Assembly: GCA_964497155.1 (NCBI GenBank)
Contig: CAZCCB010000002.1
Location: forward strand, 1 to 38,241
DNA length: 38,241 nt
Direction: 5' to 3'
Origin: an uncultured Nitrososphaerota archaeon
Lineage (GTDB): Archaea > Thermoproteota > Methanomethylicia > Culexarchaeales > Culexmicrobiaceae
The notes under the pieces were generated by a model. That model was not told the origin of the DNA. It made no database searches and was given only the letters and a program-made list of their open reading frames with translations. This document shows positions 24,940-26,582 of the stretch, piece by piece. The position numbers and the translations under genes were made by a program. Position 1 is the first letter of the stretch, and each line of letters starts with the position of its first letter.

Positions 24940-26582
24940 TCATTTATGTCTACTTAATCTATGTTTGAGCGCAGCTTTTACAAATCCGAGATATGGTGGA
25001 GATGGTTTACCTGGTCGAGACTTGAATTCTGGATGTGCTTGTGAACCTAGGAAAAATGGGTGATCTTTTAACTCAATAAATTCTATTCTCCTACCATCTG
25101 GACTTCTACCAGAGAATATTAATCCGTGACGCTGAAGAATATCCCAATATGATGGATTAACTTCATATCTATGTCTATGCCTCTCATAGATTAATGTCTT
25201 CCCATAAAGTTTATGAGCAAGAGTGCCTGGTTCGAGTACTATTGGATGAGCCCCAAGTCTCATTGTACCACCCTTCCTAGTAATTTCTCTCTGTTCTGGA
25301 AGAAGATCAATTACAGGGTTAGGCGTATTTGGATCATTTTCAGTGCTATTTGCATCTTTTAATCCAACAACATTTCTGGCATATTCTACTACAGCCATTT
25401 GGAAACCAAAACATATACCTAAAAATGGAATTTTATTTTCTCTTGCAAATTTTACTGCTAAAATTTTGCCTTCAGTACCTCTAGGACCAAATCCCGGTGG
25501 AACAAGTATACCATCATAATCTTCTAGAATCTCTAATTTTTCAGATGATTCTTCGAAAATTTCTGTTTCAATCCAATCTATATTAACCCTAGTTTTTATG
25601 GCCGCTCCAGCATGTTTAAGAGCCTCATTAATGCTAATATATGCATCGGCCAATTTAGCATACTTACCACACATTGCAATTTTAATTTCATAGTCAAATT
25701 TCTCAAATGACTCCACAACAGATTTCCAGTAATCCCAATTTGGTTTACGAATATTAAGTTTCAATCTTTTACATATGTAATCACCCATTCCTTGCTTATC
25801 AAGTATTATTGGAACCTTATATACGCAATCAACAGTATATGATGTGAAAACAGCTTCTTCAGGTACGCTTCCATATAATGCTATTTTCTTCCTAGCTGAG
25901 GGCTCTAATGGTATACTACATCTAGCAACGATAATATCCGGTTGAATACCTATTCTTCTAAGTTCATTTACACTATGTTGGCATGGCTTAGTTTTCTGCT
26001 CTCCAGTTACATCTAATATTGGAACGAGAGCCACATGAACAAATAATGTGTTATCATATCCCTCTTCTAATCTCATTTGTCTAATTGCCTCTAGGAATGG
26101 TAGACCTTCGATATCGCCAACAGTGCCTCCAACCTCAACTATAACTACATCAACATTACTGCGCTTCGCAGTTAATCTAATCCTCCTTTTAATTTCGTTT
26201 GTAATATGAGGAACCACTTGTACACATGCACCCAAGTAATCTCCACGCCTCTCCCTCTCTATAACCGTTAAATATATTTGCCCCGTTGTAATATTATTGT
26301 CCTTTGGCAAATTAATGTCCAAAAACCTCTCATAGTGACCTAAATCTAAATCTATTTCTCCACCATCTTCAGTAACAAAAACTTCTCCATGCATATATGG
26401 ATTCATAGTCCCTGCATCTACATTTAAATAAGGATCAATCTTAACTGCAGTAACAGTATAACCTCTAACTTGAAGCATTTTGCCTATTGAAGCTGCAACT
26501 ACACCTTTAGGGGGGAGCTAATTTAGCTCCCTTTCCCCACACTAGATAAAACACCGCCAGTAATGAAAATATATTTAGACAA
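24940..26582 (-). CDS. pyrG: CTP synthase, interrupted. Exon 1 is 26582..~26533 (TTG start, [17 protein letters not shown]) and exon 2 is ~26506..24940. They are separated by a 26-nt BHB-like insertion.
   Basis: The ORF-track protein (512 aa from 26478) lacks the universally conserved N-terminal YIFVTGGVxSSxGKG motif. That motif is encoded upstream in another frame, behind the SD GAGGTGA (26595..26589) and the TTG at 26582. Deleting 26 nt restores ...[21 protein letters not shown]..., which is collinear with E. coli PyrG (GKGIAAASL). The glutaminase domain GICFGFQ and HPEF motifs are intact. Confidence 0.85.
26507..26532 (-). other. candidate 26-nt bulge-helix-bulge (BHB) intron within the pyrG mRNA; the boundaries are ambiguous within a duplicated AAAGG
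   Basis: RNA (minus strand): GGGG[AAA]GGGAGCUA-AAU-UAGCUCCC-CCCU[AAA]GG. There is an 8-bp inner helix (26531..26524 with 26520..26513) and a 4-bp central helix (26538..26535 with 26512..26509, 3 GC + 1 GU). Two 3-nt AAA bulges sit on opposite strands (26534..26532 and 26508..26506). Confidence 0.6.

Follow-up and report, generated by a model that had tools for sequence, protein, structure and literature searches.

The window examined here comprises 38,241 nucleotides (nt), positions 1 to 38,241 of contig CAZCCB010000002.1 (assembly GCA_964497155.1) from an uncultured Nitrososphaerota archaeon, and its minus strand carries pyrG, the gene for cytidine triphosphate (CTP) synthase, in two parts that lie in different reading frames, 26 nt apart. 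The mechanically called pyrG open reading frame (ORF), from the ATG at 26478 to 24940, encodes 512 amino acids (aa) without the GGVxSSxGKG segment. Direct reading located the missing segment upstream in another frame, which starts at a TTG at 26582, 6 nt 3' of a Shine-Dalgarno-like GAGGTGA (26589-26595, minus strand), and gives 19 residues before it reaches a TAA (26523-26525) inside the insert. On the same strand, exon 1 occupies 26533-26582 (the TTG start, 16 codons in all, and AA, the first two bases of a Lys codon), and exon 2 occupies 24940-26506, where an A finishes the Lys codon and coding continues to the stop. A direct AAAGG repeat (26530-26534 and 26504-26508) flanks the 26 nt. The initial annotation had described this arrangement and ascribed it to a bulge-helix-bulge (BHB) intron that splits pyrG; the frames, the repeat and their coordinates were confirmed, and our analysis makes it very probable that 26507-26532 (minus strand; 26 nt, AGGGAGCUAAAUUAGCUCCCCCCUAA) is a relaxed BHB intron in the precursor messenger RNA (pre-mRNA) of pyrG, of the HBh' or bulge-helix-loop form.

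Deletion of the 26 nt produces a 538-aa PyrG with a single frame through the junction. The Pfam domain CTP_synth_N is covered from 1 to 265 of its 265 positions in this spliced product, compared with 25-265 in the called ORF, and the product also matches Pfam GATase. Its alignment with the Sulfolobus CTP synthase 3NVA starts at residue 2 and is gapless at the junction (E = 2.7e-211), and the 26 nt stand out as a clean insertion against five Bathyarchaeia pyrG genes that lack an intron. Judged by these alignments, the predicted spliced product is a complete CTP synthase, in line with the gapless collinearity with bacterial PyrG noted in the initial annotation. The predicted junction joins GUGGGGAA to AGGUGUAG (in a longer form, TCTAGTGTGGGGAA to AGGTGTAGTTGCAGC), so that GUG GGG AA meets A GGU GUA and codes V-G-K-G-V; in a circularized intron, the predicted junction would join ...CCCCCCTAA to AGGGAGC....

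The minimum-energy structure of 26485-26570 contains the elements that had been proposed from the sequence. A central helix (H) of 4 bp forms between GGGG in exon 1 (26535-26538) and CCCU within the intron (26509-26512), and an inner helix (h'), the 8-bp hairpin GGGAGCUA-AAU-UAGCUCCC, occupies 26513-26531. The AAA at 26532-26534 is unpaired between H and h' and forms the 5' bulge, and a second unpaired AAA, the 3' segment, lies at 26506-26508; read 5' to 3', each strand thus presents four helix bases followed by three unpaired ones. The published rule for BHB motifs places the cut between bulge residues 2 and 3 (PMC2738675). Applied to this fold, the rule predicts symmetric cuts after 26533 (26533/26532) and after 26507 (26507/26506), which take out 1 + 19 + 4 + 2 = 26 nt, exactly the length that restores the PyrG frame.

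The geometry is common, however, and the fold z-score was only -1.46. A loose geometric scan (4 bp, 3 nt and a stem of at least 6 bp) returned 147 matches in the AT-rich window, among which we did not find a second convincing intron. The case rests for this reason on frame restoration and on comparative data. An Rfam scan of the window gave zero family matches, and a repeat search found the hairpin sequence to be single-copy in the window, so it is not a repeated element.

To obtain related loci, we used the 512-aa ORF as the query in a protein search, fetched the DNA of the relatives and scanned metagenome contigs with a conserved-flank pattern. Close relatives (74-91% PyrG identity) were annotated in one of two ways: at 510-515 aa, with the N-terminus cut off at the same Met, or with odd N-terminal peptides (for example MWGKGTFRFPPRGVVAAS) that result from read-through of the insert in another frame. 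All of those examined carried an insert. In total, 16 distinct related loci, all derived from metagenomes, had an insert between the same two codons, with 14 distinct sequences and seven lengths (21, 22, 24, 25, 26, 27 and 28 nt). The architecture was constant, GUGGGG-AAA-[hairpin]-CCC(U/C)-A(A/G)A-GG, with a hairpin of 4-8 bp in each locus, and the intron length was always that of the hairpin plus 7, which is exactly what cuts after base 2 of two 3-nt bulges predict. When the canonical cleavage rule was applied in silico, 16/16 loci regained VGKGVV and a PyrG of full length. In all 16, the insert read in the exon-1 frame also brings in a stop, 2-6 codons past the Lys, even where its length is 21, 24 or 27 nt, and the 20 nt that precede the start of exon 1 contain a GGTG/GGAGG-type motif. 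Alignment of these loci, which had been suggested as a check, therefore showed that the insertion is conserved.

The comparison bears directly on whether the insert is a sequencing or assembly artefact, for which the only argument is the prior one that short palindromes can be misassembled. An independent 4.8-kb metagenome contig, L107, aligned with window positions 25636-30457 without gaps and with 7 substitutions in 4822 nt (99.855% identity), and it carries the identical 26 nt. Homologous inserts were present in assemblies from JGI, ENA, NCBI and Logan, and clusters of N-truncated PyrG occurred on dozens of contigs. Because the same 26 nt were recovered in L107, which was assembled independently and differs by 7 single-nucleotide substitutions, we regard an artefact as excluded for practical purposes; its probability is vanishingly small.

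Covariation was computed on an alignment of the 14 distinct intron sequences. Over the whole motif, 96.7% of cells were paired, compared with 86.4% in shuffles. In the hairpin h', 94.8% of cells were paired, and five of the seven tested pairs showed two-sided changes that preserved pairing; such compensatory changes occurred in 22 cells, a number equalled by none of 500 shuffles. When the partners were slid by 1-3 columns, pairing dropped to 45-76%. The central helix was 4 bp in 14/14 sequences with 100% of cells paired (three GC pairs and one GU or GC pair), and its 3' strand was CCCU in 10/14 and CCCC in 4/14, the sole change being that of the outer pair from G-U to G-C. Compensatory changes in the helices, which had also been suggested as a check, were thus found. 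A covariance model built from the 14 introns matched only pyrG sites in 276 kb of collected sequence, and other scores were at most 13.7 bits.

The unpaired bases and the flanking codons were similarly constrained. The 5' AAA between H and h' was invariant, and 3' A-R-A stood directly past H in 16/16 loci. Within the bulges, variation was limited to the central base of the 3' bulge (A in 6 loci, G in 10); it is intronic under the canonical rule, which is consistent with cuts after the second base, and if the cuts lay one base further 5', the 10 AGA loci would encode Arg in place of the invariant Lys. The exon-1 codons for T-G-G-V-L-S-S showed synonymous variation and zero amino acid change across the 16 loci. 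In contrast, GTG GGG AA(A) was identical in 16/16 intron-bearing loci while the neighbouring Val, Gly and Ser codons varied, and among 80 intron-less homologues GTGGGGAAAGG occurred in none and GGGGAAAGG in one. This frozen stretch points to a constraint on RNA structure on top of the coding constraint. Between lineages, the ratio of nonsynonymous to synonymous substitution rates (dN/dS) over the whole spliced gene was 0.03-0.13, and dS was above 1 or incalculable for most pairs. Judged by these rates, both exons are under purifying selection and the gene is alive; the saturation of dS indicates that the intron has persisted through long divergence.

A pseudogene would offer a different account of the split frame: a small palindrome inserted into the DNA, with duplication of the 5-bp target AAAGG, would have inactivated the copy, and CTP synthase would come from another gene. 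The direct AAAGG repeat around the palindrome in the window fits such an event. The repeat is not conserved, however, and reads AGAGG in 10/16 loci; the insert kept its codon while synonymous sites became saturated; the hairpin covaries; and the low dN/dS and the retained exon-1 peptide would not be expected of a dead gene. In addition, another PyrG homologue on the 843-kb or 1.08-Mb contigs was not among the best 120 matches. We consider inactivation of the gene scarcely credible on these grounds, and the reading of the insert as an intron that splits a living pyrG, which had been put forward for the single locus, is strongly supported by the same-codon inserts, the covariation, the frozen exon helix and the purifying selection.

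Two explanations at the level of translation were also weighed. Programmed ribosomal frameshifting was rejected, because the 21-, 24- and 27-nt inserts keep the frame yet carry a stop, and because every variant would retain 7-9 surplus residues in the GKG loop. Translational bypassing, of the type of phage T4 gene 60 or the yeast mitochondrial 'byps' elements, would let the ribosome skip the 21-28 nt without any splicing, departing from the Lys or Gly codon that precedes the hairpin and landing on a matching codon before GUN GUN. In the window, the AAA at 26532-26534 and the AAA at 26506-26508 match and lie in the right frames, a hairpin stands at the take-off site, and a stop follows within two codons. 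Across the loci the correspondence fails, however: the landing codon is AGA and not AAA in 10/16, the next codon (GGG, GGA, or GAG in locus L085) never matches the landing GGU/GGC, and the stop lies away from the take-off codon in most variants. Bypassing also leaves unexplained why a 4-bp helix is accompanied by exactly three unpaired bases on each strand and why the GTG GGG sites are frozen, and it appears very improbable.

The insert was confined to one group of relatives. The relatives at or below 73% PyrG identity (P0007, P0011, P0047, P0075 and the Bathyarchaeia L001-L005) were intron-less, and where examined their gene neighbourhood differed from that common to the close relatives, which consists of a KaiC-like ATPase, NadE, pyrG, a helix-turn-helix regulator, Rio2 and DUF460. 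This distribution fits one gain at the base of a single clade. Three of the distant relatives with short-called PyrG (P0007, P0047 and P0075) had been suspected of introns, but their DNA was uninterrupted and the start codon had been miscalled. Similarly, the intron-less PyrG of the more distant relatives L113, L114 and L115 (each at about 1330-1560) was called 8-21 residues short: a conserved K-Y/H-I/V-F N-terminus precedes the called start in frame, without an evident canonical start codon beside it; this looks like start miscalling or non-canonical starts, not introns. One match of the pattern scan, L102 3237-3283, was discarded as chance, since it lies on a GC-rich, bacterial-looking contig and is a terminator-like hairpin unrelated to pyrG. 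That hairpin, flanked by GGGG-AAA and CCCC, starts 7 nt past the stop of a 480-aa ORF.

The comparative evidence strongly supports the view that the intron must be spliced from the pyrG mRNA for full-length PyrG to be made. The transcript would begin upstream of exon 1. Once about 85 nt of coding RNA had been made, the exon-1 GGGG would pair with the intronic CCCU and the 8-bp hairpin would form, so that an AAA triplet is exposed on either strand, with 4 bp between the two. The tRNA-splicing endonuclease EndA would then cut past the second base of each triplet, and an RtcB-type ligase would join ...GUG GGG AA to A GGU GUA..., recreating the GKG Lys codon and the 538-aa CTP synthase, whereas the unspliced mRNA would give only the 19-residue peptide. 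We infer the identity of the nuclease and ligase from the geometry of the motif, and the exact cut positions and efficient splicing are likewise predictions. Removal by other machinery, such as another structure-specific nuclease combined with a different ligase, would be suggested by the missing outer helix of a strict EndA substrate. On the other side, a spacing of 4 bp, an unpaired 3-nt segment on each strand and the hairpin-plus-7 rule fit the measure of EndA, hetero-oligomeric EndA cleaves such relaxed motifs in cbf5 pre-mRNA (PMC2738675), and we did not find another archaeal mRNA splicing system described in the literature that we consulted (PMC7714728). Involvement of such other machinery is therefore highly unlikely, and EndA with an RtcB-type ligase remains the pathway that we propose.

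Several observations weigh against this interpretation. An outer helix (h) contiguous with H was not found, since only a single U.G is possible next to H; for this reason the motif is a relaxed HBh' or bulge-helix-loop form and not a strict hBHBh', in agreement with its earlier assignment to the relaxed HBh' type. A displaced, weak outer pairing, UAUC/GGUG with a 6-nt loop offset, was statistically the same as coding conservation. ARAGORN detected zero tRNA genes, and hence no tRNA intron of the lineage itself, in the window or in 25 related loci, and the annotation of the window contained neither an EndA nor an RtcB gene. An exact look-up of seven predicted spliced proteins in a collection of 15 billion proteins found none of them and thus supplied no cDNA-derived support and no allele without the intron, although the collection may lack metatranscriptome assemblies of these organisms. 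Relaxed motifs need an EndA of broad specificity, (alpha-beta)2 or epsilon2 (PMC5829648), and EndA and RtcB were present in all near-complete archaeal genomes surveyed (PMC12918454).

RNAalifold placed three discontinuous exon-exon helices in 14 lineages, with 96% of cells paired versus 94.8% in shuffles. The pairing stretches lie at alignment columns 30-36/120-127, 44-48/107-111 and 53-56/98-101, which correspond to about 26541-26567 with about 26472-26505 of the window. They could clamp the exons together or mean nothing, as they are indistinguishable from chance given the codon conservation.

Splicing of pyrG could also act as a control point and not as passive repair, much like the regulatory switch on CTP synthesis raised in the initial annotation; we consider this doubtful. 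Since the motif lies 45-77 nt past the start codon, with half of its central helix in coding sequence, the first ribosome to translate the mRNA would melt the motif and stop within the intron. How much PyrG is made would then be decided by a race of EndA and RtcB against translation initiation, and CTP supply would be coupled to the processing capacity for tRNA and ribosomal RNA (rRNA). In such a scheme, the stops in the 21-, 24- and 27-nt variants would have been selected to silence unspliced mRNA, and the excised circle of 21-28 nt could have a role of its own.

Relatives of the methionine adenosyltransferase encoded in the window, at 74-84% identity, bear the NCBI name 'Candidatus Methanomethylicota', which the current NCBI taxonomy places within the phylum Thermoproteota. 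Reverse gyrase is a mark of hyperthermophiles, and the window encodes one of 1228 aa (14049-17735, plus strand; zf_Rg, DEAD helicase, Toprim and Topoisom_bac domains), which suggests that the host is a hyperthermophile. Thermoproteota is also the phylum in which relaxed-BHB cbf5 introns and hetero-oligomeric EndA occur (PMC2738675, PMC5829648).

Elsewhere in the window, four consecutive genes on the plus strand (4392-8250) carry Fer4_22 (4Fe-4S dicluster), NAD_binding_1 with DHODB_Fe-S_bind, Oxidored_q6 and NiFeSe_Hases domains and look like a four-subunit soluble [NiFe] hydrogenase cluster. The intergenic region 4317-4392 (minus strand), between the divergent genes 3770-4276 (minus) and 4392-5384 (plus), contains a 10-bp stem around about 40 nt that was picked up in the geometric scan and had no Rfam match. 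The gene at 27501-28256 (minus strand), between the KaiC-like gene and nadE, has no in-frame ATG, GTG or TTG after the TGA at 28254-28256; it is a 205-aa ORF without a Pfam match at 1e-5, although related genes are annotated as Metallophos. Where its counterpart in L081 starts with TTG, the window has an ATT (28242-28244), with a CTG one codon upstream; the N-terminus reads MGNKKIIIAATADVH, compared with MGSIRIAATADVH. L107 aligns without gaps over this stretch, and a non-canonical start is likely for the gene.

The closest parallel is provided by the cbf5 introns of Thermoproteota (Desulfurococcales and Sulfolobales), which are 16-44 bp long, mostly have unconventional BHB motifs and are cleaved by the hetero-oligomeric endonuclease (PMC2738675). 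Like them, the predicted pyrG intron (21-28 nt) is a short intron within a coding sequence, has a relaxed BHB with the predicted cut between bulge bases 2 and 3, and interrupts an essential codon (the Lys of GKG in pyrG, the catalytic Asp in cbf5). In both genes, some variants keep the frame and still need removal, and the spread is restricted to clades. The two sites are analogous, not homologous: pyrG encodes a metabolic enzyme and cbf5 an RNA-modification enzyme, and the pyrG intron occurs in a Methanomethylicota-like lineage represented by metagenomes only and lies only 50 nt past the start codon. Moreover, cbf5 splicing was demonstrated by cDNA and in vitro cleavage, whereas the pyrG intron is predicted from sequence comparison. 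Work on the cbf5 pre-mRNA intron includes that of Watanabe (2002), Yoshinari (2006) and Yokobori (2009).

Other systems share part of this pattern. The introns of tRNA and rRNA, with the hBHBh' and HBh' motifs of Marck and Grosjean (2003) as far as these are cited in PMC2738675, have the same 4-bp helix, opposed 3-nt bulges, inner hairpin and symmetric cleavage rule; in pyrG, however, the host RNA is an mRNA without the context of a mature domain, and the outer helix is absent or weak and displaced. The HVO_1309 mRNA of Haloferax volcanii contains a BHB intron in its 5' untranslated region (UTR) that was demonstrated in vivo and in vitro (PMC7714728). It resembles the predicted pyrG case in that the archaeal splicing endonuclease acts on an mRNA and not on tRNA or rRNA, but its intron lies in an untranslated leader, its reading frame is uninterrupted and its host is euryarchaeal. 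A comparison can also be made outside the archaea. In eukaryotes, IRE1/RtcB splicing of the XBP1 and HAC1 mRNAs is non-spliceosomal, and the XBP1 intron is 26 nt. This unconventional splicing, mentioned in PMC13149111, shares with the model proposed for pyrG a very short coding-sequence intron, a change of reading frame and joining by RtcB; unlike the EndA proposed for pyrG, the IRE1 nuclease recognises twin stem-loops, and XBP1/HAC1 splicing is a regulated stress switch, a kind of role that for pyrG is hypothetical.

The initial annotation had taken cbf5 to hold the only BHB intron described in an archaeal mRNA. This stands in part, as cbf5 is the only coding case that we found, but the 5'-UTR intron of HVO_1309 is a further mRNA example. 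According to the 2020 study that added the Haloferax case, the intron of the cbf5 mRNA was until then the sole report outside tRNA and rRNA (PMC7714728). Our literature search, which was not exhaustive, found neither pyrG or CTP synthase together with bulge-helix-bulge or splicing endonuclease in archaea, nor Verstraetearchaeota or names beginning with Methanomethylic together with EndA. The comparative data support the view that the pyrG intron extends the mechanism known from cbf5 to a further gene and a further lineage.

If this interpretation is correct, pyrG would be the second archaeal protein-coding sequence known to need this splicing, and an independently acquired case in a core metabolic gene, maintained by a whole clade beyond synonymous saturation, would mean that such mRNA introns are no oddity of one gene. 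The motif would offer a compact natural substrate, a structure of 33 nt, for the recognition by EndA of relaxed motifs outside tRNA. Gene callers give pyrG of this lineage either as a truncated protein (510-515 aa) or as a read-through product with a false N-terminus (533-540 aa), and an essential enzyme would thus be mis-annotated in dozens of metagenome-assembled genomes. Further introns of this kind may be traceable by the comparative signature recovered here, in which inserts of differing length share one codon, the hairpin covaries and synonymous sites are frozen.

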